From Candidatus Poriferisocius sp. (lineage in GTDB: Bacteria > Actinomycetota > Acidimicrobiia > Acidimicrobiales > Bin134), in contig NZ_OZ241836.1 of the NCBI RefSeq assembly GCF_965202595.1, positions 215,095 through 279,094 on the forward strand: a stretch of DNA of 64,000 bases, written 5' to 3'. The position numbers were made by a program, and so were the translations under genes. Shown here piece by piece: positions 11,098 to 64,000 of this stretch (within the stretch, counting starts at the first letter, position 1; the number at the start of each line of letters is the position of its first letter). The notes beneath the pieces were generated by a model, which was given only the letters and a program-made list of their open reading frames with translations, had not been told where the DNA came from and did no database searches.

Positions 11098-11120
11098 CTA
11101 CCGGCCGGTAGGGCCGAGGC

Positions 11121-20434: not shown

Positions 20435-20662
20435 CCGTTTATCCACGATGGCAGGGTTGATGGGCATGGCGTTGAACACTCGCCGGTTGCTTGCTGCGGC
20501 CCGATGACCGTTTATCCACGATGGCAGGGTTGATGGGCATGGCGTTGAACACTCGCCGGTTGCTTGCTGCGGCCCGATGACCGTTTATCCACGATGGCAG
20601 GGTTGATGGGCATGGCGTTGAACACCCGCCGGTTGCTTGCTGCGGCCCGATGACCGTTTACC
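20408..20662 (+). repeat. 73-bp tandem repeat (3 units plus a partial one) of the hemC-stop/cobA-start junction, encoding six chained mini-ORFs
   Basis: cgccggttgcttgc at 20408, 20481, 20554 and 20627. Mini-ORFs: 20431-20460, 20460-20507, 20504-20533, 20533-20580, 20577-20606, 20606-20653. They alternate between 9 aa (MTVYPRWQG) and 15 aa (MGMALNTRRLLAAAR), linked by ATGA and TGATG overlaps. Confidence 0.9.
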
Positions 20663-23587: not shown

Positions 23588-24789
23588 ATGTACTCGGCTG
23601 TTTTGGGGTTGTCGGGATCCATGAGGTTGGCCATGATGCGCAGGGCCCACTCCATGATCGGCCGGGATTGCATGCCGATCCGGGTTAGTTCCCGCAGCAG
23701 CGCCGGTTTGCCGATGAGCCGGGCAAACAGGCGGGCCACCCGAAAGTAATCCCCGTAGCATTCGTCCAGCAGGTTCGGGTACCGCCAGATCACCCCGCCG
23801 TCACCGGTGGCCAGGGCCTCGGCCACCAGATCGGCGGCCATCCGACCCGTCTCGTAGGCGTAGTCGATGCCCTCACCGTTGAACGGGTTGACCGACCCGG
23901 CCGCGTCCCCCACCACCAGGTGGTTGGGCCCCACCTTGGGGTTGACCGACCCGGCCATGGGCAGGCGCCCCCCCACCGGGTCCATCAGCGGCCGGTTGGG
24001 GTCGATCTCCCAGTGGGCGGGCAGGGTGGCCGCGAACTCCCGCATCAAGTGGGAGGTGTTGACCGAGGTGTAGTCACGAAACGTGGACAGCAGACCCACG
24101 CCCACGTTCACGCTCCCGTCGCCCACGGGGAAGATCCAGCCGTATCCCGGCAGTGAATTGCCGTTGCGGTCCCGCACATCCAGGGCGCTCTCGATCCAGG
24201 GGGTGTCGTGGAGCGGGCTCTCGAAGTATGTGCGGATGGCCATGCCCTGGGGGTAGGTCCGGTCCCGGGCCGTTCCCAGGGCCCGGCCGAACCGGGAGTT
24301 GGCCCCGTCGGCGACCACCACATAGCGGGCCCGTACCCGGTCGGTGCCGCCCGTTATGGTGTTCTTCACCTCGACCCCGTCCAGCAGCCCGTTGACCAGC
24401 AGCGGTCGGGTGGCTTCAACCCCGAGCCGGAGTTCGGCCCCCCCGGCTACCGCGTGGTCGGCCACCAGTTGGTCGAGCTCCCGCCTCCGCACCACATAGC
24501 CGTAGTCGGGGAATACCGGGTGGCGGGGCCAGGCCAATTCCATGGTCCGGCCATGGGCCACCGCCCGCAAACCCCGGTAACGGTGGTAGCGGATCATCCG
24601 GTGACCCAAACCCATGTCGTTCAGCGCCTTTACCGCCCGGGGGGTGAGTCCATCGCCGCACGTTTTGTCACGGGGGAACTGCTTGCGCTCCACCACCACC
24701 ACGTCCAGCCCGTGCCGGGCCGCCCAGTAGGCCGTGGCGGCTCCGGCCGGGCCACCGCCGACGACCAGAAGGTCGCGGGAAGTGGTCAG
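23545..24789 (-). CDS. Geranylgeranyl reductase family FAD-dependent oxidoreductase
   Basis: DLLVVGGGPAGAATAYWAARHG dinucleotide fold, RDKTCGDGLTPRA and GDAAGSVNPFNGEGI. No ATG or GTG lies near the fold. The start is inferred as CTG 24789, overlapping a TGA. The maximal ORF (to 24915) would overlap the upstream gene by about 100 nt. Confidence 0.75.
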   Translation of the reverse strand: MTTSRDLLVVGGGPAGAATAYWAARHGLDVVVVERKQFPRDKTCGDGLTPRAVKALNDMGLGHRMIRYHRYRGLRAVAHGRTMELAWPRHPVFPDYGYVVRRRELDQLVADHAVAGGAELRLGVEATRPLLVNGLLDGVEVKNTITGGTDRVRARYVVVADGANSRFGRALGTARDRTYPQGMAIRTYFESPLHDTPWIESALDVRDRNGNSLPGYGWIFPVGDGSVNVGVGLLSTFRDYTSVNTSHLMREFAATLPAHWEIDPNRPLMDPVGGRLPMAGSVNPKVGPNHLVVGDAAGSVNPFNGEGIDYAYETGRMAADLVAEALATGDGGVIWRYPNLLDECYGDYFRVARLFARLIGKPALLRELTRIGMQSRPIMEWALRIMANLMDPDNPKTAEYIYKAAAKASTVASK

Positions 24790-24829
24790 TTCTCCCCCAG
24801 AAGGTCGCGGGAAGTGGTCAGTTCTCCCC
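24765..24829 (-). repeat. 32-bp tandem duplication of the cytochrome-c-stop / reductase-start junction
   Basis: ccagaaggtcgcgggaagtggtcagttctccc at 24765 and 24797. On the minus strand this gives an 11-codon ORF (CTG 24821 to TGA 24786: LTTSRDLLGEN*) between the two genes. Confidence 0.8.
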
Positions 24830-32146: not shown

Positions 32147-32680
32147 ATGACCGGCCAGTACCTGCCGATCCTCGCCCTCGGGGTGCTGGCCGTGTTGTTT
32201 GCCGCCCTCAGCTTCGGTGCATCCCGCCTGCTGGCTCCCCGGCGGCAGACCCGGGCCAAGCTGGCTCCCTACGAGTGCGGGGTCGCCGAGAGCGGTGATG
32301 TCCCGGAGCGGTTCGGGGTGCGGTTCTTTCTCATCGCCATGATCTTCATAGTCTTCGACATCGAGATCATCTTCTTGTACCCCTGGGCGGTGTCCTACCG
32401 GGGGTTGGGTCTGTTCGGCCTGGTGGCCATGGGGGTGTTCGCCCTGGTGGTGTTCGAGTCCTTCGTCTATCTCATAGGCAACGGGGCTCTGGACTGGGGG
32501 CCGGCGCGGTCCTCGTGGCGGCGCGACCCCCGGGTGTTGGCCCACCGCACCAGCGACACCACCATCCGCCGGGTTGGTTTGGACGGTCGCGGTTCTGCGG
32601 GTGGGGTTGGTTTGGATGGTCGCGGTTCTGCGGGTGGGGTTGGTTTGGATGGTCGCGGTTCTGCGGGGGAGGCGGCGTGA
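32147..32680 (+). CDS. nuoA: NADH-quinone oxidoreductase subunit A with a repeat-expanded C-terminal tail
   Basis: PYECG, and [21 protein letters not shown]. The tail carries [11 protein letters not shown] x3. Confidence 0.9.
32571..32669 (+). repeat. In-frame 33-bp tandem repeat x3 at the nuoA 3' end
   Basis: gggttggtttgga[c/t]ggtcgcggttctgcgggtg at 32571, 32604 and 32637. Confidence 0.9.
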
Positions 32681-33297
32681 AGTTGCCGCTTCTGGGCGAT
32701 TCCGAGGCCATCGCCGGCCGGGGCCTGGAGGGATTGGACCACAATTTTTTGACCGGCAGGATCGAGGATCTGGTCAAGTGGTCCCGGGCCCGAAGCTGCT
32801 GGCCCGCCACCTTCGGCTTGGCTTGCTGCGCCATAGAGATGATGGCCACCGGTGGGGCCCACTACGACCTGGCCCGTTACGGCATGGAGGTGTTCAGAGC
32901 CTCTCCCCGCCAGGCCGATCTGATGATCGTGGCCGGCCGCGTCTCGCAGAAGATGGCTCCCATACTGCGCCGCATATACGACCAGATGATGGAGCCCAAG
33001 TGGGTGATCTCCATGGGGGTATGCGCTTCCAGCGGCGGCATGTTCAACAACTACGCCATCGTGCAGGGGGTGGATCAGATCGTGCCGGTGGATGTGTACG
33101 CCCCCGGCTGCCCGCCCGGCCCGGAGACGCTCATGCACGCCATCTTGACCCTCCACGACAAGATCCTCAGCGGGGAGATCACCCGCCGCCGGGATCAAAC
33201 CGGGGCTGGGGCCAACCTGACGGTGAGCGAGAGCGGGGGGCCCGGTACCACGGGGGGTGCCAAAGGTAGTACCACGGGTGTGGTTATTCGCGCATGA
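32677..33297 (+). CDS. nuoB: NADH-quinone oxidoreductase subunit B
   Basis: [20 protein letters not shown] and GCPPGPE motifs. GTG start overlaps the nuoA stop (GTGA). Confidence 0.9.
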
Positions 33298-33728
33298 GCG
33301 ATTCGGTGCTGCATGTGCCTCGTGAGCAGCTCATCGAAACGGTGAGCCGCTTGCGGGATGGTGGCTACGTGATGGTTTTGGACGTGACCGCGGTGGACTA
33401 CCTTCAGCATCCGGGCCGCGACGACCTGCCCCCCGAGGTGACCGCCGAGCGGTTCGAGGTGGTGGTCACCCTCATCTCCCACGCCGAGTTGGCCCGGATC
33501 AGGCTGCGGGTGCAGGTGCCCGCCGAGGATCCCACCGTGCCCACCCTGTTCGACCTCTTTCCCGGTACCGAGGCCCTGGAGCGGGAGGTGGCCGACATGT
33601 TCGGCATAGTTTTCGAGGGCCATCCCGATCCCACCCGCATCCTTATGCCCCCCGACTGGGACGGTCACCCGCTGCGCAAGGACTTCTCGGTCGGTCGCAT
33701 ACCGGTTCAGTTCAAGGCAACCCGATGA
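33294..33728 (+). CDS. nuoC: NADH-quinone oxidoreductase subunit C
   Basis: [17 protein letters not shown] and HPLRKDF motifs. ATGA overlap with nuoB. Confidence 0.9.
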
Positions 33729-35104
33729 GCGCCAGCGCTCCCGGTGCTGTGGTTGATGCCGGTGCTGCCGGTGCCGGTGCTGTGATTGATGCCGGTGCTG
33801 CCGCCCCTGGCACCGTGGTTGATGCCGGTGCTGCCGGTGCCGCGGACACGGCCGAAGCCGTTTGCCGGCGGGAGGGTAGCGCGGTGCTCAGGATCGGTGA
33901 GGACGACGGTGAGCGTTTGGAGGCCGAGGCCGGCACCAGCGCCACCAGCATGGTCATGAACATGGGGCCCCAGCATCCCAGTACCCACGGTGTGCTGCGG
34001 CTCATGCTGGAGATGGATGGGGAGACCGTGATGCGGTCCAAGCCGGTCATCGGCTACCTCCACACCGGTATGGAGAAGACCGCCGAAACCCTCACCTACC
34101 TCCAGGGCCCCACCAACGTCACCCGCATGGATTACGCCTCGCCGCTGTTCAGCGAGCTGGCCTTCTCGATGGCCACCGAGGCGTTGCTGGGCCTGGAACT
34201 GCCCCCCCGAGCCGTATGGATCAGGATGCTCATGTGCGAGTTGAACCGCATCAGCTCGCACCTGCTGTTCCAGGCCACCAACGGCATGGACATCGGGGCG
34301 GTGTCGATGATGCTGTACGGCTGGCGGGAGCGGGAGGAGGTTCTCCGGCTGCTGGAGAAGATCACCGGGCTGCGGATGAACCACAACTACATCCGGCCCG
34401 GCGGGGTGGCTGCTGACCTTCCCGATGGCTGGCGGGACGGCGTGCTTTCCCTGATCGACACCCTGCCCGCCCGGCTCGACGAGTTCGACACCCTGCTCAC
34501 CGGCCAGCCCATCTACCGGCAAAGGTTGCAGGGCGTGGGGGTGATCAACCCCGCCGAGTGCCTGGCCCTGGGGGTGACCGGGCCCATCCTGCGCTCCACC
34601 GGCTACGCCTGGGACCTGCGGCGCGACATGCCCTATCTGGCCTATGACCAGGTGGATTTCGACGTGGTGGTGGGCACCTACGGGGACTGCTTCGACCGCT
34701 ACGCCATCCGGTTGAACGAGATAAGGGAATCGATTCGCATAGTGGCTCAGATCCTCGACCGGATGCCCGCCGGTGACTACCGGGTACAGGACAAGAAGGT
34801 CACCCCGCCGCCCCGGGCCCGTATTGATGAGTCGATGGAGGCCCTCATCCACCACTTCAAGATCTTCACCGAGGGGTTCAAGGTGCCGGCCGGTGAGGTG
34901 TATGCCGCCGTGGAATCCCCCCGGGGCGAGCTGGGCTGTTACATGGTGTCCGATGGCTCGGCGGTGCCCTACCGCATGCACATCCGCGGCCCCAGCTTCG
35001 TGAACCTGCAAACCCTGCCTCACCTGATGCGGGGGGGCCTGGTGGCCGACGCGGTGGCCATCATCTCCTCGGTGGATCCCATTATGGGAGAGGTGGACCG
35101 GTAG
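33725..35104 (+). CDS. nuoD: NADH-quinone oxidoreductase subunit D with a repeat-expanded N-terminus
   Basis: MNMGPQHPSTHGVLRL, and ESPRGELG near the C-terminus. Confidence 0.95.
   Translation: MSASAPGAVVDAGAAGAGAVIDAGAAAPGTVVDAGAAGAADTAEAVCRREGSAVLRIGEDDGERLEAEAGTSATSMVMNMGPQHPSTHGVLRLMLEMDGETVMRSKPVIGYLHTGMEKTAETLTYLQGPTNVTRMDYASPLFSELAFSMATEALLGLELPPRAVWIRMLMCELNRISSHLLFQATNGMDIGAVSMMLYGWREREEVLRLLEKITGLRMNHNYIRPGGVAADLPDGWRDGVLSLIDTLPARLDEFDTLLTGQPIYRQRLQGVGVINPAECLALGVTGPILRSTGYAWDLRRDMPYLAYDQVDFDVVVGTYGDCFDRYAIRLNEIRESIRIVAQILDRMPAGDYRVQDKKVTPPPRARIDESMEALIHHFKIFTEGFKVPAGEVYAAVESPRGELGCYMVSDGSAVPYRMHIRGPSFVNLQTLPHLMRGGLVADAVAIISSVDPIMGEVDR
33743..33841 (+). repeat. In-frame 33-bp tandem repeat x3 at the nuoD 5' end
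   Basis: ggtgctgtggttgatgccggtgctgccggtgcc at 33743, with copies at 33776 and 33809. Protein: GAVVDAGAAGA GAVIDAGAAAP GTVVDAGAAGA. Confidence 0.85.
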
Positions 35105-37166: not shown

Positions 37167-39790
37167 ACCGGCCGGAAACCGTGGTCAACATCACCGTCAA
37201 CAACCGGTCGGTGCAAGCCACCCCCGGAGAGTGGGTGATTGCCGCTGCCGAACGGGCCGGGGTGTACATCCCCCACTTTTGCTACCACCCCCGCATGAAC
37301 TCGGTGGGCATGTGCCGCATGTGCATCGTGGACATCGACACCGGGCGCGGCCCCGCCCTGCAACCCTCCTGCATGGTGCCGGTCAGCGAGGGAATGGTGG
37401 TGGACACCACCTCCGAGCAGACCCGCAAGGCTCAGGAGGGGGTGCTGGAGTTCCTGCTGTTGAACCACCCGCTGGACTGCCCGGTGTGCGACAAGGGCGG
37501 CGAGTGCCCCCTCCAGGACCAAACCATGTCCCACGGCCCCGGCGAGAGCCGCTTGGTGGAGGAGAAGCGCCATTTCGAGAAGCCCATCCCGGTGAACGAT
37601 CTGGTTTATCTGGACCGGGAGCGCTGCATCCTCTGCGATCGCTGCACCCGGTTTGCCGATGAGGTGGCTGGGGACCCGCTCATCACGTTCCAGGATCGGG
37701 GGGATCGGACTCAGGTCAACACCTTCCCCAATCTGCCCTTCTCCTCGTACTTCAGCGGCAACACCGTGCAGATCTGCCCGGTGGGGGCCCTCACCGCTCG
37801 ACCCTACCGGTTCAAGGCCCGCCCCTGGGACCTCACCGAGGTGGAGTCCACCTTCCCCAACCCCATGGGTGATCGGGTGGTGGTGCAGGCCTCTCGCGAC
37901 CAGGTGCTGCGCTACCAGGGAGTGGACAGCGACGCGGTCAACTGGGGGTGGCTCACCGACAAGGATCGGTTCGCATTCGAAGCTCTTGATCGGGGGCCAC
38001 GGCTGACGGTGCCGCTGGTTCGGGGCTCCTCGATGAGTGGCTCCGACCCCGGCGGCCAGGAGCTGGTGGAGTCCTCCTGGCATCAAGCCCTCAACCGGGC
38101 CGCGGAGGCCATCCGGGCTGCGGTGGCCGACCGGGGTCCGGGGTCGGTGGCGATACTGGGTGGGGCCCGCTCGACCAACGAGGACCAGTACGCCTGGGCT
38201 CGCCTGGCCAAGGGGGTTATCGGCACCGACCATGTTGACGCTCAGCTCGACGACGGCCTGCCCGCCGATGTCGTGCTCGGCCTGCCTCGGGCCACCATCA
38301 ATCGGGCCTGCACCCCCGGCGGCACCGTGATCTTGATGGCACCCGATCCCAAGGAGGAACAAGGCACCCTCTACCTGCGGCTCCGCCACGCCGTGACCAA
38401 CGACGGCGTGCAGCTCATCGAGCTGACCCCCCGAGCCACCGGTTTGAGCCATCTCGCCGCCCACCGGCTGCACCACCGCCCCGGTGAGGTTGCCGCGGTG
38501 GCGGCGGCCCTGGTGGGCGGCGATATCGATGTCGGACCCGCCGGTGAGATCGGCGGGGTTCCCGGTCCGGTGCTGGCCGCTGCGGCGGCCGGGCTGGTGG
38601 CCCGAGCCGATCAACCCATAACCGTGATCCTGGGTCGCCCTTCGCTGGCCGAGTCGGCCGCCCCTACGGTGGAGGCCGCCGCCGAACTGTCCAAGCTGGC
38701 CCGGCTGCTCGCCGCGGGCGGGCGACCCGGCATGAGTTTCCTGCCCGTACTGCACCGGGGCAACGTGTTCGGCGCGCTCGACATGGGTCTGGCTCCCGGT
38801 CTGCTGCCGGGCCGGGTGTCCCGGGCCGATGGTGGCTCGGCGGTGGCCGAGTTTTGGGGTTCGTTACCGGCGGACCCGGGCGCTGGGGCCGGCATCGCCA
38901 CCGGCGCTGCCACCGGCGCTGGGGCTGGTGCTGTCACCGGCGCTGCCACCGGCGCTGCCACCGGCGCTGGGGCCGGCGGGATCCTGGAAGCGGCCGCAGG
39001 GGGACGAATCGAGGTGCTGATCCTTTTGGGGGCCGATCCTTTGGGCGACGTTCCCAACGCCAAGCTGGCCGAGACCGCTCTGGCCGGGGTGGGCACCATC
39101 ATTGCCTCCGACTTGTTCCTGAACCCCTCCGCGGCCCGGGCCGACATCGTTTTCCCGGTCACGGCGTTCGGTGAGCATCGGGGTACCCACACCAACCTGG
39201 AGGGTCGGATCACCCGGCAGCGCCAGATTGTCACCCCTCCGGGTACGGCCCGGACCAACTGGTCCATCGCCACCGATCTGGCTCGGTTGCTGGGCACCGA
39301 TTTCGGGTTTGCCGACCCCGAGGCGGTGTGGTCCGAGATCACCCGGGTGGCCCCGTCGCACCGGGACCTGACCCTGGAGGCCGTGGAAGCCGAAACCGAT
39401 GGCGTGGTGGTTGCCGGTAGCTCCATCGTGTTCACCCCGCCCGGCGAACCGGTGCCGGTACCCCCGGCCGATGCCTACGGCCTGCGGTTGGTGTCGTCGC
39501 GCCGCATGTACGACCGGGGCACGCTGCTTCAGCACTCCCCCTCCCTGGCCGGTTTGGCTCCCACGGCGGTGCTGGCCGTGAACCCCTCCGACTTTCAGGG
39601 TGTCGGGGTGGATCCCGGTACCGAGGTTCAGGTCGTCTCCCCGGTCGGTGAGATGACCGTGCCGCTGGTGGTCGACCCCGGTGTGCCCCGAGGGACCGCA
39701 GCTTTTGGCTACAACCACCCCGACCGCGATGTACGAGAACTCATCGACCCGGCCGCGGTGGTTACCGATGTGAGGATTCAGACCCGATGA
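37163..39790 (+). CDS. nuoG: NADH-quinone oxidoreductase subunit G
   Basis: N-terminal 2Fe-2S/4Fe-4S Cys clusters (CYHPRMNSVGMCRMC, HPLDCPVCDKGGECPLQD, CILCDRC) and a molybdopterin-like domain. A GA/T-rich low-complexity insertion lies around 38870-38990. Confidence 0.95.
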   Translation: MNRPETVVNITVNNRSVQATPGEWVIAAAERAGVYIPHFCYHPRMNSVGMCRMCIVDIDTGRGPALQPSCMVPVSEGMVVDTTSEQTRKAQEGVLEFLLLNHPLDCPVCDKGGECPLQDQTMSHGPGESRLVEEKRHFEKPIPVNDLVYLDRERCILCDRCTRFADEVAGDPLITFQDRGDRTQVNTFPNLPFSSYFSGNTVQICPVGALTARPYRFKARPWDLTEVESTFPNPMGDRVVVQASRDQVLRYQGVDSDAVNWGWLTDKDRFAFEALDRGPRLTVPLVRGSSMSGSDPGGQELVESSWHQALNRAAEAIRAAVADRGPGSVAILGGARSTNEDQYAWARLAKGVIGTDHVDAQLDDGLPADVVLGLPRATINRACTPGGTVILMAPDPKEEQGTLYLRLRHAVTNDGVQLIELTPRATGLSHLAAHRLHHRPGEVAAVAAALVGGDIDVGPAGEIGGVPGPVLAAAAAGLVARADQPITVILGRPSLAESAAPTVEAAAELSKLARLLAAGGRPGMSFLPVLHRGNVFGALDMGLAPGLLPGRVSRADGGSAVAEFWGSLPADPGAGAGIATGAATGAGAGAVTGAATGAATGAGAGGILEAAAGGRIEVLILLGADPLGDVPNAKLAETALAGVGTIIASDLFLNPSAARADIVFPVTAFGEHRGTHTNLEGRITRQRQIVTPPGTARTNWSIATDLARLLGTDFGFADPEAVWSEITRVAPSHRDLTLEAVEAETDGVVVAGSSIVFTPPGEPVPVPPADAYGLRLVSSRRMYDRGTLLQHSPSLAGLAPTAVLAVNPSDFQGVGVDPGTEVQVVSPVGEMTVPLVVDPGVPRGTAAFGYNHPDRDVRELIDPAAVVTDVRIQTR

Positions 39791-39840
39791 CGGCTGACCC
39801 GGCTGCGGTGGTTACCGATGTGAGGATCCGGACCCGATGA
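39746..39840 (+). repeat. 50-bp duplication of the nuoG/nuoH junction with a 17-codon bridging mini-ORF
   Basis: gacccggc.gcggtggttaccgatgtgaggat.c.gacccgatga at 39746 and 39796. Mini-ORF 39787-39840 (MTADPAAVVTDVRIRTR*). ATGA overlaps at both ends. Confidence 0.9.
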
Positions 39841-41063
39841 ACGTCGCCCCGGCGCTTTTGGGTCCGACCGTGTTCGGCCTCGACCCGCTCTACATCGGGG
39901 GGGTGGGCCTGGCCGAGGTTCTCATCACCCTGCTCAAGGTGGGGGTGGCTTTTGCTCTTCTGCTGATGGCGGTCATGCTGATGATCTGGTTCGAACGCAA
40001 GTTGATCGGCGACATGCAGAACCGTATCGGGCCTGCGCTGGCCGGGCCGTTCGGCATCTTCCAGACCCTGGCCGACGGGATCAAGCTGTTCTTCAAGGAG
40101 GACCTGATCCCCGACCGCTCCGACCGGTTGGTGTTCAAGCTGGCCCCCTACCTGTCGCTGGTGCCTGCCTTTTTGGTGTTCGCCGTGATCCCCGTGGGCG
40201 GCGATTTCAGCGGTGGCAACGGGCGGGTCAGCCTGTTCGGTCACGAGACCTTCCTCCAGGTGTCCGACCCGCCGGTGGGCATCCTGCTGGTGCTGGCCAT
40301 GTCGTCGGTGGCCGTTTACGGGGTGATGCTGGCCGGGTGGTCGTCGGGCTCCAAGTATCCCCTGCTGGCGTCGGTGCGGGCCTCGGCCCAGATGGTTTCC
40401 TACGAGGCCGCACTGGGTTTGTCGCTGGCCGCGGTGCTGCTGAAATCGGGCAGCCTGTCCACCCACCTGATCGTTTCCGAGCAGTCGGTGTGGAACTGGA
40501 ACCTGTGGGTTACATGGGTGGTGCCCATGGTCGTCTTCTTGATCGCTGCCACCGCCGAACTGAACCGGCCCCCCTTCGACCTGGTGGAGGCCGAGCAGGA
40601 GCTGGTCGGCGGCTTCCACACCGAGTACAGCTCCATCCGGTTCGCCCTGTTCTACCTGGCCGAGTTCATGAACACCATCACGATGTCGGCCATCGTGGTG
40701 ACCCTGTTCCTGGGCGGGCCCAACGGTCCCGACTTCACCTCGGTGGGCTGGCTGTCGGGGTTGCTGTGGTTCTTGGGCAAGCTGCTGATCCTGCTGTTCA
40801 CCTTTGTGTGGTTGCGGGCCACCCTGCCCCGCTTCCGCTACGACCAGCTCATGGACCTGGGTTGGAAATTGCTCATCCCCCTGTCGCTGGGGTGGCTGCT
40901 GGTGCTGGCCTCCTACGACGTGGCCGGGGATCGGGGCTGGAACCGCTTCGCCACCGTGCTGGCGGTGATGGCGGTGATGGCCGCTCTGGCCGGGTTGTTG
41001 AGCCTGGCCCTGCGAAATGCCCGCCGCCACCGGGAGTTGGATCCCCAAGGTGGTTTTGCCTGA
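39837..41063 (+). CDS. nuoH: NADH-quinone oxidoreductase subunit H
   Basis: WFERKLIGDMQNRIGP and EAEQELVGGFHTEYS motifs. Confidence 0.95.
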   Translation: MNVAPALLGPTVFGLDPLYIGGVGLAEVLITLLKVGVAFALLLMAVMLMIWFERKLIGDMQNRIGPALAGPFGIFQTLADGIKLFFKEDLIPDRSDRLVFKLAPYLSLVPAFLVFAVIPVGGDFSGGNGRVSLFGHETFLQVSDPPVGILLVLAMSSVAVYGVMLAGWSSGSKYPLLASVRASAQMVSYEAALGLSLAAVLLKSGSLSTHLIVSEQSVWNWNLWVTWVVPMVVFLIAATAELNRPPFDLVEAEQELVGGFHTEYSSIRFALFYLAEFMNTITMSAIVVTLFLGGPNGPDFTSVGWLSGLLWFLGKLLILLFTFVWLRATLPRFRYDQLMDLGWKLLIPLSLGWLLVLASYDVAGDRGWNRFATVLAVMAVMAALAGLLSLALRNARRHRELDPQGGFA

Positions 41064-42461: not shown

Positions 42462-42743
42462 CTGGTGCTGGCTGGCGCGCTGTTCACCATCGGGGCGGTG
42501 GGCCTGCTGGTGCGGCGGAACCCGCTGATCATGTTCATGTGCGTGGAGCTGATGCTCAACGCGGTCAACCTCACCTTCATCACCTTCGGGCGGGAGCTGA
42601 ATGACATCGGGGGGCAGGTGTCGGTGTTCTTCGTGCTGGTGGTGGCCGCGGCCGAGGTGGTGGTGGGTCTGGCCATCGTGGTGGCCATCAAGCGCCACCA
42701 ACCCCGGGCCACCGCCGACGACCTTGCGGCCCTGAAGGGTTAG
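42441..42743 (+). CDS. nuoK: NADH-quinone oxidoreductase subunit K
   Basis: 100 aa: LVLAGALFTIGAVGLLVRRNPLIMFMCVELMLNAVNL. Confidence 0.95.
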   Translation: MVTASWYLVLAGALFTIGAVGLLVRRNPLIMFMCVELMLNAVNLTFITFGRELNDIGGQVSVFFVLVVAAAEVVVGLAIVVAIKRHQPRATADDLAALKG

Positions 42744-42843
42744 TGGGTACATGAGCATGCTCGTGGATGCTGAAGGGTTAGTGGGTACATGAGCACCCTC
42801 GTGGATGCTGAAGGGTTAGTGGGTACATGAGCACGCTCGTGGA
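42732..42843 (+). repeat. 38-bp tandem repeat x3 of the nuoK/nuoL junction with two chained 13-codon mini-ORFs
   Basis: ctgaagggttagtgggtacatgagca..ctcgtggat at 42732, 42770 and 42808. Mini-ORFs 42751-42792 (MSMLVDAEGLVGT*) and 42789-42830 (MSTLVDAEGLVGT*), ATGA-chained to the nuoL ATG at 42827. Confidence 0.9.
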
Positions 42844-44722
42844 TCTGGTGTGGCTGATCCCCGCCTTCCCGCTGGCCGGGGTTCTGATCCTCGTGGTTTC
42901 GGGGCGCAGGCTGGGCGAACCCCGGGCCGGCTGGCTGGCCACCGCCATGATGGGCGGATCGTTCGTGACCACGCTGCTGGTGTTCATCGGGCTCCTGGGC
43001 CACGACGGTGAGGAGCGTCAAAAGGTGCTCACCCTGTTCGAGTGGGTACCCGCGGGGCGGCTGGCGGTGGACATCGGCTTTCTGGCCGACCCGCTGGCCA
43101 TCACCATGGCCTTGTTCGTGACCGGGGTCGGAGCTCTCATCCACCTTTACTCCATCGGCTACATGCACGGCGACGAGGGGTTCTCCCGGTTCTTCGTGTA
43201 CCTCAACCTGTTCGCCTTCTCCATGCTCATGCTGGTGCTGGGCGACAACCTCCTGCTCACCTTCCTGGGCTGGGAGGGGGTGGGGGCCTGCTCCTACCTG
43301 CTCATCTCGTTCTGGTTCACCGACGAAACCAACGCCACCGCGGGCAAGAAGGCGTTCGTCACCAACCGGGTGGGCGACTGGGGCTTCTTGGTGGCCATGT
43401 TCCTGGCGTTCTTGACCTTCGGGTCGCTCCAGTACGGCGAGATCTTCTACGACCTGGAGTCCAACGGGGTGGCCGCTGGCACCGCGTCGGCCATCGTGGT
43501 GCTGCTGCTGGTGGGCGCGGCCGGCAAATCAGCCCAGTTCCCGCTGCACATCTGGCTGCCCGATGCCATGGCCGGCCCCACCCCGGTGTCGGCGCTCATT
43601 CACGCCGCCACCATGGTCACCGCCGGGGTTTACCTGCTGATCCGCATGAACCCGATCATTGCCGAGGCCCACGGGTGGGTGCCCGACCTGATCATGTGGT
43701 TGGGTCTGGGGACCGCGCTGATGGCCGCCACCATCGCGGTGGCCCAGAACGACATCAAGAAGGTGCTGGCCTACTCCACGGTCAGCCAGCTCGGGTTCAT
43801 GTTCGTGGCGGTGGGGTCGGGGGCCTACGTGGCCGCCATCTTCCACATGGTAACCCACGCCTTTTTCAAGGCCCTCCTGTTCCTGGGGGCCGGGTCGGTG
43901 ATCCACGCCATGCACGGCGATCAGGATCTTCGCCGCTACGGCGGTCTGGCCCGATTTCTGCCCGTTACCTCGATGACCTTCGTGGCCGGCTGGCTGGCCA
44001 TTGCCGGCGTTCCCCCGTTCTCCGGTTTCTGGTCCAAGGACGAGATCCTGGTTTACGCCTATGGCGAGAACAAGCTGCTGTGGCTGCTGCTGCTGGTGAC
44101 CGCGGTGCTCACCGCCTTCTACATGACCCGGCTGGTGCTCATGACGTTCTTCGGCCCCCGCCGCTGGGCGGGCGAAGCAGCCGATCCCCACGAGTCGCCG
44201 TGGACGATGACCGCTCCCCTGGTGGTTCTGGCCGCCCTGGCCGTGGTGGCCGGGGTGGTGAACCTGCCGTTTGCCTCCAGCACCCACTTCTTGGGGAACT
44301 GGCTGGATCCGGCCTTTTTCGGCAATGCCTCTCACCTGAGCCTCGGCGGGGGCACCAAATGGGTGCTGGCCGCCGTTGCCATCGTGGGCAGCCTTCTGGG
44401 AGTCTCGGCCGGGGCCGCGGTGTACGCCCGGCGCCGGGTGGATCCGGCTCGCCTCGAGCACCCCTTCCTGGCCCGGGCCTGGCGCATCGATGAGCTGGTC
44501 ACCGCCTTCATGGGTGGTCCCGGCCGCCGGGCGTTCGAGCGCACCACCCGGTTTGATGAGCAGGTGGTGGACGGCGCGGTCAACGCCACCGGCGCTTTGA
44601 TCCGCCGGGCCGGAACCAAACTGCGGGTGTCGCAAACCGGCCTGGTGCGCAGTTACGCCCTGGGTATCGCCGCCGGGGCAGTGGCACTTTTGGCCTGGTT
44701 CCTGTCGCGGGCGGGGTTGTGA
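42827..44722 (+). CDS. nuoL: NADH-quinone oxidoreductase subunit L
   Basis: 631 aa, with antiporter-like motifs (WEGVGACSYLLISFW, KSAQFPLHIWLPDAMAGPTPVSALIHAATMVTAG). Confidence 0.95.
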   Translation: MSTLVDLVWLIPAFPLAGVLILVVSGRRLGEPRAGWLATAMMGGSFVTTLLVFIGLLGHDGEERQKVLTLFEWVPAGRLAVDIGFLADPLAITMALFVTGVGALIHLYSIGYMHGDEGFSRFFVYLNLFAFSMLMLVLGDNLLLTFLGWEGVGACSYLLISFWFTDETNATAGKKAFVTNRVGDWGFLVAMFLAFLTFGSLQYGEIFYDLESNGVAAGTASAIVVLLLVGAAGKSAQFPLHIWLPDAMAGPTPVSALIHAATMVTAGVYLLIRMNPIIAEAHGWVPDLIMWLGLGTALMAATIAVAQNDIKKVLAYSTVSQLGFMFVAVGSGAYVAAIFHMVTHAFFKALLFLGAGSVIHAMHGDQDLRRYGGLARFLPVTSMTFVAGWLAIAGVPPFSGFWSKDEILVYAYGENKLLWLLLLVTAVLTAFYMTRLVLMTFFGPRRWAGEAADPHESPWTMTAPLVVLAALAVVAGVVNLPFASSTHFLGNWLDPAFFGNASHLSLGGGTKWVLAAVAIVGSLLGVSAGAAVYARRRVDPARLEHPFLARAWRIDELVTAFMGGPGRRAFERTTRFDEQVVDGAVNATGALIRRAGTKLRVSQTGLVRSYALGIAAGAVALLAWFLSRAGL

Positions 44723-54692: not shown

Positions 54693-55322
54693 ATGTCGCT
54701 TCTTGTTTCGGCCCGCGCCCACTTGGTGGACTACAGGCACCGCCTGCTGCGTTACGGCGGGGCATCGGCGGTGGGGGTGGTGTTGGGGCAGACCATCCTG
54801 CGAGTGTGCTACGACCTGCTGGGATGGTCGGCGTTGGTGGCCAACCTGGTGGCGTTCCTTATAGCCAACATCCCCGTGTACCACCTGAACCGGTCATGGG
54901 TGTGGGACCGATCGGGTCCCAGTAGCTGGAGGCGCGAGGTGCTGCCCTTCTGGCTGGTTTCCTTCGCGGGGCTGGCCCTGTCGTCGCTTGCCGTGGGTTT
55001 GATCGACCGGGTGACCGGCAACGGCTGGTTGATCACCGTGGCATCGGTGGGGGCGTTCGGCACGGTATGGCTGGTGAAGTACGCGGTGTGCGACCAGTAC
55101 CTGTTCGGCCCCCCAGGCCAAAGCGGCGACCATGACGGTCCCAATCGGGAGATGGCAGGGGATCACAACGATCCCAATCGGGAGATGGCTGGGGATCACG
55201 ACAGCTCCAATCGGGGAATGGCTGGGGATCACGACAGCTCCAACCGGGGGATGGCAGGGGATCACAACAGCTCCAATCGGGGAATGGCAGGCGATGGAGC
55301 CCGACCGGCGGGCGTTCGCTGA
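54693..55322 (+). CDS. GtrA-family membrane protein with a repeat-expanded C-terminal tail
   Basis: GASAVGVVLGQ, FLIANIPVYHLNRSWVW and VKYAVCDQYLF fit the GtrA pattern. The tail is GDH[DN]..NR[EG]MA x5. Confidence 0.75.
   Translation: MSLLVSARAHLVDYRHRLLRYGGASAVGVVLGQTILRVCYDLLGWSALVANLVAFLIANIPVYHLNRSWVWDRSGPSSWRREVLPFWLVSFAGLALSSLAVGLIDRVTGNGWLITVASVGAFGTVWLVKYAVCDQYLFGPPGQSGDHDGPNREMAGDHNDPNREMAGDHDSSNRGMAGDHDSSNRGMAGDHNSSNRGMAGDGARPAGVR
55125..55295 (+). repeat. In-frame 33-bp tandem repeat x5 at the GtrA 3' end, abutting the next gene's start
   Basis: Units encode GDHDGPNREMA, GDHNDPNREMA, GDHDSSNRGMA, GDHDSSNRGMA and GDHNSSNRGMA. Confidence 0.9.
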
Positions 55323-55923
55323 GGCCGCCCGGGGTTTCATGCCCCCCGACGAGGGGTTGGCTCTGAACCGGGCCGCGTGCGGCCTGGGCGTGGATGGGCC
55401 GCTTTTGGAGGTGGGCAGCTATTGCGGCAAGTCCTCGGTCTATTTGGGTGATGCCGCCCAGTCCCAGGGGCGGCTGCTTTTCGCTCTGGATCATCACCGG
55501 GGATCGGAGGAGAACCAGCCCGGTTGGGAGTGGCACGAGCCCGACCTGGTGGACCCCGAGGTGGGCCTGATCGACACCCTGCCCCATTTCCGCCGCACTG
55601 TTAACCGGGCCGGGCTGGAGCCGTGGGTGGTGGCGGTGGTGGGTGACTCGGTGACCATCGCCCGGAACTGGTCCACCCCGCTGGCCTTTCTGTTCATCGA
55701 CGGCGGTCACGGCCCCGAGCCGGCCCACGCCGACTACGAGAACTGGGTGCCCCACGTGGCCATCGGGGGCCGGTTGGCCATCCACGATGTGTTTCCCGAT
55801 CCCGCCGACGGTGGCCGCCCGCCCTACGAGATCTACTGCCGGGCCATGGACTCGGGAGCGTTCACCGAACTGGCCGCCACCGGCTCGCTGCGGATACTCA
55901 CCCGCCACGCCCCCGGAATCTGA
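55294..55923 (+). CDS. Class I SAM-dependent methyltransferase (Methyltransf_24-like)
   Basis: LLEVGSYCGKSSVYL and FLFIDGGH motifs. The start is set at ATG 55294. The longer track ORF from 55132 only reads the GtrA repeat in another frame. Confidence 0.7.
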   Translation: MEPDRRAFAEAARGFMPPDEGLALNRAACGLGVDGPLLEVGSYCGKSSVYLGDAAQSQGRLLFALDHHRGSEENQPGWEWHEPDLVDPEVGLIDTLPHFRRTVNRAGLEPWVVAVVGDSVTIARNWSTPLAFLFIDGGHGPEPAHADYENWVPHVAIGGRLAIHDVFPDPADGGRPPYEIYCRAMDSGAFTELAATGSLRILTRHAPGI

Positions 55924-59744: not shown

Positions 59745-60483
59745 TCTTGGCCTCCTTCAAATGGCTGGAACCTGATTTCCGGCTGTAAAGCACCAGGCTC
59801 TTGCCCAGGACCGGACTCAGAACCCGGTCAGCAATTCGGGTAATTCTGGGTTGGTCAACAATATCCCATTCCAGGAGTCGGCGGTAAGCCGCAACCAGCC
59901 GGTGGTTATCGTTGTTCGGACCCACCGCGCACCGCAACCACCAGTAGGGGCTGTGCAGCCCATGAGCGTGGTGGCTGGAGAACGGGGTGAGGCCGGCGCA
60001 CCGGAGCCGACCGCGGAGCTGTCCGTGCCGGTAGATGCGCACGTGGCCGCCCACCGCTCGGGGGGCGTGGTACTCGTCCGACAGGGCCCAGCAGATCTTC
60101 TCGGGTAGCCAGGTGGGTACGGTCACGGCCAGGACCCCGCCGGGTCGCAGCACCCGGGCCAGCTCGGTCAGGGCCTGCTCGTCGGAGTGCACGTGCTCGA
60201 GCACCTCCGAGGCGATGATCCGGTCGAATACCCGGTCGGCAAAAGGTAGGCGGGTGGCATCGCCCCGGACGGTTTGGCAGGTTCCGCGGTACCGCTCGCC
60301 GGCCTCCGACATGGCGGCAAAGGTGGCCCTCACCTGGGCCAGCTCTGTCGATGCCAGATCGCAGGCCACCACGTGCGCCCCCAATCGAGCAGCCTCATAG
60401 GCGTGGCGCCCGAAACCGCACCCCAGATCCAGGAGCTGCTCGCCGGGTTTCAACCCCAGCCGGTTGTAGTCAACGGTCAGCAC
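59731..60483 (-). CDS. Class I SAM-dependent methyltransferase
   Basis: LLDLGCGFGRHA (motif I), VVACDL and RVLRPGGVLAV. GTG start at 60483. Confidence 0.8.
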   Translation of the reverse strand: MLTVDYNRLGLKPGEQLLDLGCGFGRHAYEAARLGAHVVACDLASTELAQVRATFAAMSEAGERYRGTCQTVRGDATRLPFADRVFDRIIASEVLEHVHSDEQALTELARVLRPGGVLAVTVPTWLPEKICWALSDEYHAPRAVGGHVRIYRHGQLRGRLRCAGLTPFSSHHAHGLHSPYWWLRCAVGPNNDNHRLVAAYRRLLEWDIVDQPRITRIADRVLSPVLGKSLVLYSRKSGSSHLKEAKSVAA

Positions 60484-60647
60484 CTGCTGTCCAGCAGTAC
60501 CCGGTAGTGCTCCGCTGGGGAGGAGGGCCGTATTCTCACCGTCACGCGTGCCATTCGTTGAGCAGTACCCGGTAGTGCTCCGCTGGGGATGCGGTTTGGG
60601 TTCTCACCGTCACGCGTGCCATTCGTTGAGCAGTACCCGGTAGTGCT
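60477..60647 (-). repeat. 68-bp tandem repeat (2 units plus a partial one) of the GT4-stop / methyltransferase-start junction, with two chained mini-ORFs
   Basis: The tca (stop) recurs at 60610 and 60542. Minus-strand mini-ORFs: 60613-60542 (VTVRTQTASPAEHYRVLLNEWHA*) and 60545-60477 (VTVRIRPSSPAEHYRVLLDSRC*). They are GTGA-chained, and the last overlaps the methyltransferase GTG by 7 nt. Confidence 0.85.
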
Positions 60648-61869
60648 CAACGGTCTTTTCCGCAGTGTGGTGCCAACTCCAGCGGCTCCTCACCCGTTCC
60701 CGCCCGGCTTGGCCTATCCGAGCGGCCATGGCCGGATTGTCCAGAATCCGAACGAGCGCCCCGGCCAATGCCTCGCTGTCTGCGGGGGGCACCAGCAGGC
60801 AGGTCTCGCCGCTGGTGCCGGCCACCTCGGGCAGCGCCCCGCCGGTGGTGGCCACCAGCGGTGTGGCGCTGGACATGGTTTCGATGGCCGGCAGCGAGAA
60901 CCCCTCGTACAGCGAGGGCACCACTGCCACTGAGCTGGTGGCGTACAGCTCCACAATGCGGTCATCGGGCACCCCCGACACGAACTCCACCACCTCGCCC
61001 AGTCCCAGGCTGTTGATGGTGGAGGAGGATGCACCCCCCTCGCGGGGTTTTCCGATCACGATCAGCCGCACATCCCGCTCGGTGCGCAACTTGGCCACCG
61101 CCTCCAGCAGGTAGCGCAGGCCCTTCATGGGCACATCCGCGCTGGCGGTGGTGATGATCTGCCCCGGCCGGCGGTCCACGCCGGGAAGCGGGCGGAACAG
61201 CTCGGTATCCACCCCCACCGGTACCACATGCATCCGGCCATGGGGTACCCGCTGGTCCCGGGCTATGTCGTCGAGGGACGACTCCGACACGGTGATGATG
61301 CGCCGCAAGCGGCGGGCCACCCGGGCCTGCATCCGGATGAAGGAGTACCAGCGTCGCTTGCCGAAACGATCCATCATCCCCCGGGCGTGCTCGAGCTCCA
61401 GTTGGCGGTCCACGGTGATGGGATGGTGGATGGTGGCCAGTACCGGTAGCCCGTCCCGCTCCATGCCCAAAAGCCCGTAGCCCAATGACTGGTTGTCGTG
61501 CACGATATCGAATTCCCCGGCTCGGGAGCGCAGTGCCTGCCAGGCCCGGAGCGAGAAGGCCAGCGGTTCGGAGAAGGCTCCGGTCATGAACGAGCCCACC
61601 TCGGCGGCATCGGCCCACGATTTGATCTCCCAGAATCCGGGTAACCGGCCCGGGTAGGCATCGTTGAAGATATCCAGGCTGGGAAGCCGGTGAAGCGGTA
61701 CCCGAGGGTCCAGAACCGGGTAGGGCTGCCCGCTCAGCACCTCCACGTGGTGCCCCAGATCGGTCAGCGCCCGACTCAGGTGATGGACGTACACGCCCTG
61801 GCCCCCGCAATGGGGTTTGCCCCGGTACGAAAGCAGGGCAATCCTGAGGGATCGATCCTCCGGGGCCAT
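60610..61869 (-). CDS. GT4-family glycosyltransferase
   Basis: IALLSYRGKPHCGGQGVYVHHLSRAL, and PSLYEGFSLPAIETMSSATPLV (EX7E region). Confidence 0.85.
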   Translation of the reverse strand: MAPEDRSLRIALLSYRGKPHCGGQGVYVHHLSRALTDLGHHVEVLSGQPYPVLDPRVPLHRLPSLDIFNDAYPGRLPGFWEIKSWADAAEVGSFMTGAFSEPLAFSLRAWQALRSRAGEFDIVHDNQSLGYGLLGMERDGLPVLATIHHPITVDRQLELEHARGMMDRFGKRRWYSFIRMQARVARRLRRIITVSESSLDDIARDQRVPHGRMHVVPVGVDTELFRPLPGVDRRPGQIITTASADVPMKGLRYLLEAVAKLRTERDVRLIVIGKPREGGASSSTINSLGLGEVVEFVSGVPDDRIVELYATSSVAVVPSLYEGFSLPAIETMSSATPLVATTGGALPEVAGTSGETCLLVPPADSEALAGALVRILDNPAMAARIGQAGRERVRSRWSWHHTAEKTVEHYRVLLNEWHA

Positions 61870-61875
61870 GACCTA

Positions 61876-61981
61876 CAAGGTTCTCGGAATCAGGTTGGTT
61901 GGGTCAAATATCAGTTGTTGAGGGGTTTGGTGGAGCAGGTGGGCAAGGTTCTCGGAATCAGGTTGGTTGGGTCAAATATCA
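61876..61981 (-). repeat. 68-bp duplication of the lnt 3' end/stop region upstream of the GT4 gene
   Basis: caaggttctcggaatcaggttggttgggtcaaatatcag at 61876 and 61944. Confidence 0.85.
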
Positions 61982-63456
61982 GGCTTTGGGGGTTTGGGGG
62001 TTATGGTTCGCGAGCGGAAAGCCCAGGCGGCAACCCCGATTGCCAGGGCCAGGGCAACCATGGGCCAGGGGCCGGCTCGGGTGGCGAGGGTTTGGCCGGT
62101 CCGCAGCTCGACGGGAGCTTGGATCACTGCTTGTTCGGAAACGCCGGTGCGCTGGTAAACGTTTCCGCCGGGGTCCACGAACGCGCTGAAACCGGTTGGA
62201 GATGCCTGCGCCACCCACCGCCCCGTCTCCAGGGCCCGCAACCGGGAGCTGGCAACCTGCTGGGTCTGCACGATGGTGAGCCAGTAGCTGGACCCGTTGG
62301 TGGGGTTCAACAGCACCTCACCACCGTTGCCGATGGCATCCCGAGCCCGATCCTCGAAGAAGACCTCCCAGCTTATTGATACCCCCAGGCGACCCGCGGG
62401 GGTGTCCAGCACCGCGGGGGCGTTCCCCCGCCGCATGTCCTGGGCCGGTAGGTAGTCGGGGGCCAGCGGCTCGATGAGCCACCGCAGCGGCACGTACTCC
62501 CCGAACGGCACCAGCCGCACCTTGTCGTAGCGGCCCGCCGGGGTTCCCTCAGGGGTGAACACCGCAACGAAGTTGGCTCCTGCGCCGCCGGGCAGGTCTT
62601 CGATCACCCCGGCCACCAGGGTGGTGTTCAGTTCCTGGGCCAGCTCGGCCAACCGTTGCTGCTGGGGGCTGGCGGCGAACAGGCCCTGCACGTCCACCAC
62701 GTCCTCGGGCCACACCACCAGATCCACCGGTGGTTGCACCAGTTGGCTGGCTTCCCAGTGCCGTTCGAACACCACGGCCGGGTCGGTGTTCGCGGCTCGG
62801 GTCCGCTGGGGTCCTCCCCCCTGCACCAGGGCCACGTCGATGGTGCCGAGCGCCGAACCCTGGGGGGCTACCGCGGCCCAGCCCCAGAATCCCACCACCA
62901 CCACCGCCAGAACCAGTGCGGTCTGCCAATGGCGGTGCAAAGCTGCGGCCACAACCATGGCCACCGCTACCGCCACCCCCACCAGTAGCAACGGGCCCAG
63001 CACCCGAACGGTGATGGCCCATGGGCTGTCCACCTGGCTCATGGGCAGGGTGGACAGTGGCACCCCGCCGAAGGGCCACCGCCACCGTATCGCTCCGGCC
63101 AGCACGAACAGGCCGGGCAGGGCAACCCACCGGCCGATCCCCGGTGGGCAAGCCACCCCCACCGAGCCGTAAAGAATCGAGAACACCACGCCAACGGCCA
63201 GGTAACCGGGAAGGGTGAAATCGACCATCCACAATGTGGAGGGAAACAACCAGCCGGCCCCGAATCCCAACCCCCGCCAGGCCCGGGCCCATAAGGGTTG
63301 ATCGGCCAGCAGGCGCTCCAGAACCACCAGCGCCACCAGCGCGAGGGGCCACCATCCCCAGGGTGGCATCGACAGGGCAACCAGTCCCCCAGCCCCCAAG
63401 GAGCCCACCGCCGGCACCCCGCTGGTGCGAGCCCAAAGCCCGGGTGCGAAGTTCAC
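61972..63456 (-). CDS. lnt: Apolipoprotein N-acyltransferase
   Basis: N-terminal polytopic membrane domain plus a C-terminal CN-hydrolase domain (VVWPED..., FGEYVP, ISWEVFF). GTG start at 63456. Confidence 0.8.
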   Translation of the reverse strand: MNFAPGLWARTSGVPAVGSLGAGGLVALSMPPWGWWPLALVALVVLERLLADQPLWARAWRGLGFGAGWLFPSTLWMVDFTLPGYLAVGVVFSILYGSVGVACPPGIGRWVALPGLFVLAGAIRWRWPFGGVPLSTLPMSQVDSPWAITVRVLGPLLLVGVAVAVAMVVAAALHRHWQTALVLAVVVVGFWGWAAVAPQGSALGTIDVALVQGGGPQRTRAANTDPAVVFERHWEASQLVQPPVDLVVWPEDVVDVQGLFAASPQQQRLAELAQELNTTLVAGVIEDLPGGAGANFVAVFTPEGTPAGRYDKVRLVPFGEYVPLRWLIEPLAPDYLPAQDMRRGNAPAVLDTPAGRLGVSISWEVFFEDRARDAIGNGGEVLLNPTNGSSYWLTIVQTQQVASSRLRALETGRWVAQASPTGFSAFVDPGGNVYQRTGVSEQAVIQAPVELRTGQTLATRAGPWPMVALALAIGVAAWAFRSRTITPKPPKPDI

Positions 63457-63524
63457 TGGTATCTCATTGCCACGGGCATCTCATCGCCACTGGCATCTCA
63501 TCGCCGCGGGTATCTCATCGCCAA
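63453..63524 (-). repeat. 17-bp tandem repeat x4 encoding four ATGA-chained 4-6-codon mini-ORFs, ending on the lnt GTG
   Basis: tcat at 63464, 63481, 63498 and 63515; tcac at 63453. Minus-strand ORFs, verified base by base: MRYPRR* (63518-63498), MRCQWR* (63501-63481), MRCPWQ* (63484-63464), MRYQ* (63467-63453). Confidence 0.9.
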
Positions 63525-63543
63525 AGGATGCACCAGGTGCCGG

Positions 63544-64000
63544 CTACCGGGGGCCCGGGGCACCATTTGTGGCGGCAAGGGCTGCCTGGCGACCCTGATG
63601 GATGCAGGCCGGGATGCCCAATCCTCGGGCCCACGCCCCGGTGACCTGTACCCAGGGCGCGTCTTTGGACAACGCTTGTTCGATGGTGGTCACCAACTCC
63701 AGGTGGCCGGGGAAATACTGCGGCAGGGAGTGCTCCCAGCGGCTGATGCGCACATGCTGGGGCGTGGCGTTCAGCCCCATCGTCGTTTCCAAGTCCGACA
63801 TCACCACCCCCAGCAGGGCCTCGTCGCTCAGGTACAGCAGCTCGTTGTCGCCGTACCGGCCCAGGGACACTCTCATTATCACGGTGTTCGGCGATGCCAG
63901 GTGGGCCCACTTGCTTGAGGCCCATGAGCAGGCGGTGATGCTGAGGCCCTCCACGGCCGGTACCAGAAAACCCGATCCGGCCAGGGGGTGTTTCACGGCG
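63544..64000 (-). CDS. hemY: Protoporphyrinogen/coproporphyrinogen III oxidase, C-terminal part (5' end outside the window)
   Basis: GFLVP, SSKWAH, RWEHSLPQYFPGH and GLGIPACI match the HemY/CgoX C-terminal pattern. Confidence 0.75.
   Translation of the reverse strand, partial: AVKHPLAGSGFLVPAVEGLSITACSWASSKWAHLASPNTVIMRVSLGRYGDNELLYLSDEALLGVVMSDLETTMGLNATPQHVRISRWEHSLPQYFPGHLELVTTIEQALSKDAPWVQVTGAWARGLGIPACIHQGRQAALAATNGAPGPR

Follow-up and report, generated by a model that had tools for sequence, protein, structure and literature searches.

A 17-bp tandem array between hemY and lnt in Candidatus Poriferisocius, best seen as a tolerated, frame-safe chain of mini-open reading frames

Mycobacterial interspersed repetitive units (MIRUs) are tandem units placed between co-directional genes and are reportedly about 46–101 bp long. 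Their canonical lengths of 53, 77, and 101 bp are all of the form 3n+2, and about 41 loci are occupied in 4.4 Mb. The open reading frames (ORFs) of MIRUs are coupled at −4 nt, as described in 1997 (Supply et al., as cited in PMC12548453). Here, we describe a 17-bp tandem array between a hemY-like gene and lnt (apolipoprotein N-acyltransferase) in Candidatus Poriferisocius sp., in which four mini-ORFs form a chain of stop–start overlaps leading to the lnt start. The window is the 64,000-nt stretch of contig NZ_OZ241836.1 at positions 215,095–279,094; coordinates are those within the window, and the array lies on the minus strand. The idea of coupled mini-ORFs, raised in an earlier note on this DNA, has a precedent in the mycobacterial MIRUs. 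In the literature, we found no earlier description of such arrays in Poriferisocius, other Acidimicrobiia, or non-mycobacterial bacteria; the paper on the Erdman tandem repeats makes no mention of coupling.

The hemY-like gene (3′ part, 63544..64000, minus strand) is truncated by the window end. It matches NCBIfam protoporphyrinogen oxidase models with E values from 1e-35 to 1e-24 and ends at a TAG codon (63546–63544). The number of residues after the motif QGRQAA equals that in relatives, which places the stop at its ancestral position. A spacer of 25 nt (63519..63543), with no overlapping start and no Shine–Dalgarno (SD) sequence, separates the stop from the first mini-ORF ATG at 63518. The array itself (unit ATGAGATGCCAGTGGCG, about four copies including partial ends, 63453..63524) was detected by Tandem Repeats Finder (TRF) with a period of 17, 3.7 copies, and 86% matches over 63461–63523. 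From the ATG at 63518, the minus strand reads ATGAGATACCCGCGGCG / ATGAGATGCCAGTGGCG / ATGAGATGCCCGTGGCA / ATGAGATACCA-GTGAAC. The four mini-ORFs encode MRYPRR (63498..63518), MRCQWR (63481..63501), MRCPWQ (63464..63484), and MRYQ (63453..63467), and every one of them stops at the TGA of the following ATGA (three overlaps) or, for the last, of the GTGA at 63456–63453 that contains the lnt start. These mini-ORFs, their overlaps, their coordinates, and the 25-nt distance from the hemY stop all agree with what the earlier note had reported. The period of 17 likewise stood, with the qualification that positions 63524–63519 (TTGGCG) are only a partial unit and that the last link is 11 nt long. The note's description of the unit as the smallest, or close to the shortest that can work, did not hold, given the 11-nt links here and in relatives and the 5- or 8-nt periods that are possible in principle. 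Mini-ORF 4 is comparable in length to the relatives' 11-nt links (MSSR, MSLQ, MRGR, and VSRP). The copies vary at unit positions 8, 11, 13, and 17; all four changes alter an amino acid, none touches the ATGA, and AGA is the second codon of every copy.

The lnt gene (61972..63456, minus strand) encodes 494 amino acids from a GTG start, with MNFAPGLWAR as the predicted N-terminus, and was assigned by TIGR00546 (2e-62) and by the Pfam domains LNT_N and CN_hydrolase. The GTG at 63456 is the first possible start of this ORF, and the same 494-aa product was obtained in an independent gene call and in RefSeq (WP_419918998.1). Pairing with the anti-SD sequence was predicted at −2.7 kcal/mol both for this GTG and for each of the second to fourth mini-ORF ATGs, compared with a random background mean of −4.2 and with −9 to −13 kcal/mol for other genes of the window. 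The lnt start thus pairs more weakly than background. The first ATG (63518) reached −5.1 kcal/mol, only via a GGTG 13 nt away. GTG 63456 has no SD, and a second in-frame GTG (Val17, 63406..63408), a candidate independent start, is preceded by an SD-like GGGGTG with −9.2 kcal/mol. A scan of 63000–64000 detected neither promoter nor terminator between hemY and lnt or in the array; the sole terminator-like match sits within hemY (63985–63971). An Rfam search of the junction and array gave no match at E≤1, and the region folds worse than its shuffles (z=+1.37).

Several features are shared with MIRUs. The hemY–lnt array consists of tandem units between co-directional genes on the same strand with no promoter or terminator between them, and the stop of each unit ORF overlaps the next start at −4 nt, including the final GTGA with lnt. 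Unlike MIRUs, however, the unit measures 17 bp with a last link of 11 nt, and the first mini-ORF does not overlap the upstream stop but follows it after 25 nt. The unit is also confined to one locus, and the eight junction arrays that we found in the window share no sequence, with units that were made from local gene ends and did not come from an inserted mobile element. The host belongs to the Acidimicrobiia and not to Mycobacterium, and eight junction arrays within 64 kb amount to a far higher density than about 41 MIRU loci per 4.4 Mb. The hemY–lnt array accordingly works like a MIRU and is not a member of that family, as judged from unit size, dispersal and sequence family, host, and upstream overlap.

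A second body of work concerns translational coupling in general. Coupling is most efficient at spacings of −4 to +3 nt and may extend to about +25–40 nt; at spacings like 25 nt it ranges from unchanged to abolished, depending on species and context, and short ORFs can bring ribosomes to a downstream gene (PMC12548453). As in termination–reinitiation at ATGA (Huber et al. 2019, 2023; PMC12548453), every link of the array has a −4 overlap, and GTG 63456 lacks a strong SD, although GTG 63408 farther downstream has an SD-like motif. Unlike in ordinary ATGA coupling, the overlap recurs four to five times, by way of product-less ORFs of 4–6 codons, and the first step is at +25. The array also resembles short upstream ORFs that deliver ribosomes (PMC12548453), in that a non-functional short ORF would bring the ribosome to the next start, but it is a tandem series made by duplication rather than a single upstream ORF. 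Borg repeats (bioRxiv 10.1101/2022.05.18.492195) share with the arrays of the window a genome-specific density of young repeats, an independent origin at each locus, and periods divisible by 3 within ORFs; Borg intergenic repeats are A-rich and have no reported 3n+2 or stop–start chain rule, whereas the window arrays are GC-rich and span junctions. Phase-variable contingency loci likewise have a slippage-prone repeat adjoining a start codon. Here, the chain closes at every copy number, so the array cannot act as an on/off phase switch. A leader-peptide attenuator differs from the array, in which the peptides are variable and the junction contains no terminator and no Rfam match.

Our preferred reading is that the array is a frame-safe repeat with a variable copy number that is tolerated, not a device selected for itself. 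The mechanism that we favor, and which on balance seems probable from the sequence, is a relay: a frame-safe repeat of the lnt start region would be crossed by repeated termination and reinitiation. Because the period is 3n+2 (17 = 18 − 1), an ORF that starts on one copy's ATG terminates on the TGA of the next ATGA, and any copy number would yield a closed chain of 4–6-codon ORFs, the last stop of which overlaps the lnt GTG. In this model, hemY and lnt would be co-transcribed, and ribosomes terminating at each TGA would restart at the overlapping ATG or GTG, so that a serial hand-over could feed the SD-less lnt start. Ribosomes might be loaded from hemY after scanning 25 nt downstream, or by weak direct initiation in the unstructured leader. 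Any 3n+2 duplication of an ATGA start context would by itself give rise to such a chain; after one of 3n+1, ribosomes would run out of frame across the true start, and one of 3n would lengthen the protein. These outcomes would explain the observed filter on period classes without any adaptive role for the repeat, and a function of the mini-ORF peptides themselves is unlikely since they are not conserved.

Evidence for such a filter came from the whole window rather than from this locus. Tandem arrays were counted with TRF (period ≥10, score ≥60), flanking genes of junction arrays were identified through Pfam or NCBIfam, and the strict chain test admitted only ATG, GTG, and TTG starts. At least eight arrays lie between co-directional housekeeping genes. 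Besides hemY–lnt (63453–63524, minus strand, period 17), they are found between a GT4 gene and YbjN (14516–14648, period 38), SAM_HAT and a 29-aa ORF (17385–17484, plus strand, period 35), hemC and cobA-hemD (20408–20660, plus strand, period 73 = 26 + 47, with two ORFs per unit), cytochrome c and an FAD oxidoreductase (24765–24829, minus strand, period 32, CTGA overlaps), nuoG and nuoH (39744–39853, period 50), nuoK and nuoL (42732–42844, period 38), and a GT4 gene and a methyltransferase (60493–60648, minus strand, period 68). Seven of the eight periods equal 2 modulo 3 (P=0.0026 against a uniform expectation), and seven of the eight arrays form closed chains by the strict test (binomial P about 1e-5, with 0.145 expected per array). 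None of the three tested intergenic arrays away from such junctions (periods 19, 36, and 15) had a closed chain, and the periods of within-gene arrays in the window are multiples of 3. Several arrays have a mini-ORF that visibly joins the downstream protein's N-terminus to the upstream protein's C-terminus, as before nuoL (MSTLVDLVW...), where the mini-ORF reads MSTLVD followed by AEGLVGT and a stop. The eight units share merely words of 7–9 nt (E≥0.18). With 27 tandem arrays, the window holds 4.2 per 10 kb versus 0.5 per 10 kb in the lnt loci of relatives. The high density together with the period classes suggests that tandem duplications arose in a burst specific to this lineage and were filtered by translation. 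From this lineage-wide pattern, we infer that junction-spanning tandem duplications would survive only if the stop–start chain is kept.

To examine the junction in related species, we scanned genomes with Lnt, which recovered about 30 Ca. Poriferisocius species at 75–83% identity; three further metagenome contigs were added. In these species, hemY and lnt are joined either by a direct ATGA or TAATG overlap or by links of 11, 35, 41, 53, 56, or 59 nt. The direct overlap of hemY stop and lnt start (...CGCCCGATGAGCAGCCC...) was present in L002, L005, L019, L020, L021, L024, L025, L038, and L082–84, and a TAATG overlap in L023. The 11-nt links encode MSSR, MSLQ or MSLR, MRGR, and VSRP, and L013 has an 11-bp array (CCGATGAGCAG, 3.2 copies) with MSSR twice. 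Other species have links of 53 nt (L018), 56+11 nt (L028), 11+59+11 nt (L022), and 35+11 nt (L003). Nine species share a homologous 41-nt link, in which neither ATGA motif varies, the interior has diverged (MKTCVRVAEGAITR / MSSRASLTEGAVAR / MMISASLTMGAVAR), and the length is held in seven of the nine. The architecture, that is, ATGA overlaps with a 3n+2 period, is thus retained in these sequences and the unit sequence and peptide vary freely, which fits ribosome hand-over by termination–reinitiation. On a rough neighbor-joining Lnt tree, the different junction states are intermingled in groups of close relatives, a pattern that suggests fast turnover, with frequent gains and losses.

The sister species of the window on this tree is L026 (OZ220474.1), and both end hemY in ...CGGTAG. 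After the hemY stop, L026 has GAGGCACCCCGGCG-ATGATG, comprising a GGAGG SD and the lnt start, and the array is absent. The counterpart in the window is CCGGCACC...TTTGGCG-ATGAGATACCCGCGGCG, in which the GGAGG of L026 is not present, and ATGAGATACCCGCG of the window aligns with ATGAGCAGCCCGCG of other relatives. The alignment makes the first mini-ORF ATG at 63518 the homolog of the ancestral lnt start, corresponding to the L026 start and to ATGAGCAGCCCGCGA of other relatives. The array probably arose as a local tandem duplication, through replication slippage, of the lnt 5′ end, the ATGA start context included. This would have happened after the split from the sister species and after or alongside the loss of the SD, and would have shifted the real lnt start 62 nt downstream, to the GTG. 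The 17-bp unit was not found elsewhere in the window with up to three mismatches allowed, and a degenerate exact unit pattern searched across 81 fetched loci matched only L001, a duplicate of this locus. The unit is unique to its locus and the eight array units are mutually unrelated, which points to local duplications and not to a dispersed element. At 86% identity between copies, the hemY–lnt array is not young.

L026 bears chain arrays of 74 bp and 68 bp at other junctions. The 74-bp array (L026 1368–1620, 3.4 copies, 96% identical) lies at the junction upstream of hemY, where MRTAVVGGG...GRTTP occurs three times through ATGA and is followed by hemY (MRVAVVGGGITG...); the window ends inside hemY. 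The 68-bp array is an intact TTGA chain (LTPPTGFREPCEPATGPTLSPSI and a stop, L026 4921–5095). Its homolog in the window is a two-copy repeat of about 67–68 bp at the junction of lnt and a GT4 gene (61869–61997, minus strand), which was missed by TRF and in which an internal TGA splits the chain into shorter ORFs joined by TTGA and CTGA. Comparison of the intact L026 array with the decayed homolog in the window indicates that arrays can outlast speciation and decay.

Several observations weigh against the relay. The first concerns ribosome loading: the relay named in the earlier note is in register with the lnt start but does not begin at hemY, from which it is separated by the 25-nt gap, and with no usable SD at the first ATG, loading is the weakest point of the model. 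Little flux might also be left after five successive reinitiations, and GTG 63408, 16 codons past GTG 63456, could start lnt independently. As to significance, a random tandem 17-mer gives a closed start–stop chain on one strand with P=0.127 (P=0.145 for random periods of 10–80 nt), so the hemY–lnt array alone is compatible with chance, and the sparing of ATGA by all seven substitutions has a probability of about 0.15 by arithmetic, which is not significant. The link lengths listed for relatives are 3n+2 by construction, since the chain search demanded overlaps; the independent evidence lies in the TRF periods and the invariant ATGAs. Some relatives depart from the pattern. In L012 and L016 (about 2940–2990), the link is 40 nt, the 41-nt link minus 1 nt, and the mini-ORF ends at a TAG in ATGAGTAG, 5 nt beyond the lnt ATG; L029 (2917–2961) has a 22-bp duplication inside a 23-codon ORF overlapping the lnt GTG start. 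Finally, the organism is uncultured, and we infer translation of the mini-ORFs from sequence.

The alternative that survives best is a passive repeat with independent lnt initiation, in which the array is a neutral product of slippage and lnt starts either by direct initiation in an unstructured leader (GTG 63456) or behind the GGGGTG that precedes GTG 63408. The 3n+2 rule would then reflect selection against out-of-frame ribosomes running over the lnt start and not ribosome delivery. The SD-like energy at GTG 63408, the leader less structured than its shuffles, the 25 nt between hemY and the chain, the SD-driven and uncoupled lnt start of the sister L026, and the compatibility of a single array with chance all speak for it. 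GTG 63456 itself has no SD, however, and a start at Val17 is at odds with the residues WARTSG upstream of it, which agree with relatives, with the coding-like third-position GC between 63456 and 63408 (13/16), and with the choice of the 494-aa product by both RefSeq and the gene caller. Moreover, the exact −4 register of every link, at eight junctions and across species, exceeds what avoiding occlusion of the start would need. We therefore regard a passive repeat as rather unlikely.

It is less probable still that the array is an adaptive rheostat with a selected copy number, in which each reinitiation step would cut the flux and slippage would tune the hemY:lnt ratio or the level of Lnt. Consistent with a rheostat, junction states differ between close species, the logic of the sequence keeps the chain intact at any copy number, and such arrays occur in operons sensitive to subunit ratios, for example nuo; control of downstream translation is also proposed for MIRUs in PMC7884335. 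The divergence of the copies, however, indicates that the hemY–lnt array is not now turning over quickly, and tolerance alone accounts for the pattern. These points make a selected rheostat improbable.

A role of the mini-ORFs as leader peptides, sensing charged tRNA, a small molecule, or stalling at rare AGA, Cys, or Trp codons and thereby gating lnt, would suit their position upstream of the gene and the AGA second codon of all copies. We consider it very improbable, given that the peptides differ among copies and are unrelated in relatives (MSSR, MSLQ, MKTC...), that the junction has no alternative RNA structures, terminator, or Rfam family, and that the same architecture recurs at seven unrelated junctions with unrelated units. 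An artefact inflating a single copy is the least credible explanation and highly improbable: tandem repeats are error-prone in assemblies and the only other contig is identical and perhaps from the same data, but the copies differ at four positions and so are not stutter, the same kind of array occurs in many independent metagenome-assembled genomes of different projects, and the lnt ORF has no start other than that made by the last copy. The contig in question (L001) is 100% identical over 4981 nt including the array and may share source data with the window assembly. In the search for strain variants, an exact-protein look-up of the lnt product returned only this contig, the 90% protein cluster had one member, the lnt 5′ end found no match in a scan of metagenome DNA, and a metagenome protein scan returned only relatives at ≤80% identity.

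Four further candidates were tried and rejected. With a +1 frameshift in a CCCCC run, hemY would stop precisely at the first ATGA; this was ruled out because hemY already has its ancestral length and the sister shares the CGGTAG ending. An RNA element found no backing in the Rfam search (E≤1) or in the fold, which is weaker than that of shuffles. Functional mini-ORF peptides were dismissed for want of conservation within the array or between species, and a dispersed repeat family because the unit is unique to its locus and the arrays are mutually unrelated.

Other arrays of the window showed features of their own. At 24765–24829, the 32-bp unit occurs twice with 100% identity, and the chain closes only via CTGA, (L)TTSRDLLGEN with its stop being followed by LTTSRDLLVVGGGPAG..., which implies that the oxidoreductase begins at CTG or uses a different start. 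The 73-bp array at 20408–20660 (3.5 copies, 98% identical) alternates MTVYPRWQG, linked through ATGA, with LMGMALNTRRLLAAAR, linked through TTGA, each closed by a stop; with links of 26 and 47 nt in one unit, the chain closes despite its 3n+1 period. Downstream of SAM_HAT, the last element of the 35-bp chain array is a hydrophobic 29-aa ORF (MRPGTTIVIAVLLLAILVAAAVQLFVLAR and a stop; 17456–17545, plus strand), which may be a small membrane protein or simply where the chain stops ahead of NAD_binding_7 (gene at 17559). The final 13 codons of the GT4 gene (AEHYRVLLNEWHA and a stop) are duplicated in the 68-bp array at 60477–60648 (minus strand). There, the overlap between the last mini-ORF and the GTG annotated as the methyltransferase start is 7 nt (GTGCTGA) and would be the usual −4 if the gene began at CTG. 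In-frame 33-bp arrays (33741–33842, 55141–55295, and 32571–32667) lie at or near the 5′ ends of called ORFs, namely 33725–35104 (nuoD, Pfam 49-kDa subunit), 55132–55923 (methyltransferase), and 32515–33297 (array about 56 nt in). These arrays may represent junction duplications of the 3n class, adding N-terminal repeats, with the frame and start of the 55132 ORF tentative. A 19-bp array (11041–11098, 3.1 copies) lies between convergent genes, has no chain, and was used as a non-junction control.

For the single locus, the consequence is modest and concerns the translation of the lipoprotein-maturation enzyme Lnt in an uncultured sponge symbiont. The genome-wide pattern is more interesting than the hemY–lnt array, which is short and degenerate, has a broken first link, and is of putative function. 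Tentatively, the Ca. Poriferisocius lineage (the window genome and OZ220474.1) may have undergone a burst of duplication sorted into 3n repeats in genes and 3n+2 chains at junctions, such that hundreds of operon junctions, including those of nuo and heme genes, would be crossed by two to five serial reinitiations. If so, the lineage would offer a natural demonstration of serial reinitiation at genome scale, and copy number could be a heritable, frame-safe dial on the ratio of neighboring products. If ribosomes do traverse the arrays, these would be a compact natural test bed for the number and cost of successive −4 reinitiations, and a rule of a 3n+2 period with an NTGA in every unit could let annotation tell tolerated from disruptive junction repeats and place start codons. 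A MIRU-like architecture would then arise repeatedly by local duplication at junctions, without a mobile element, which would bear on the origin of the MIRUs themselves.

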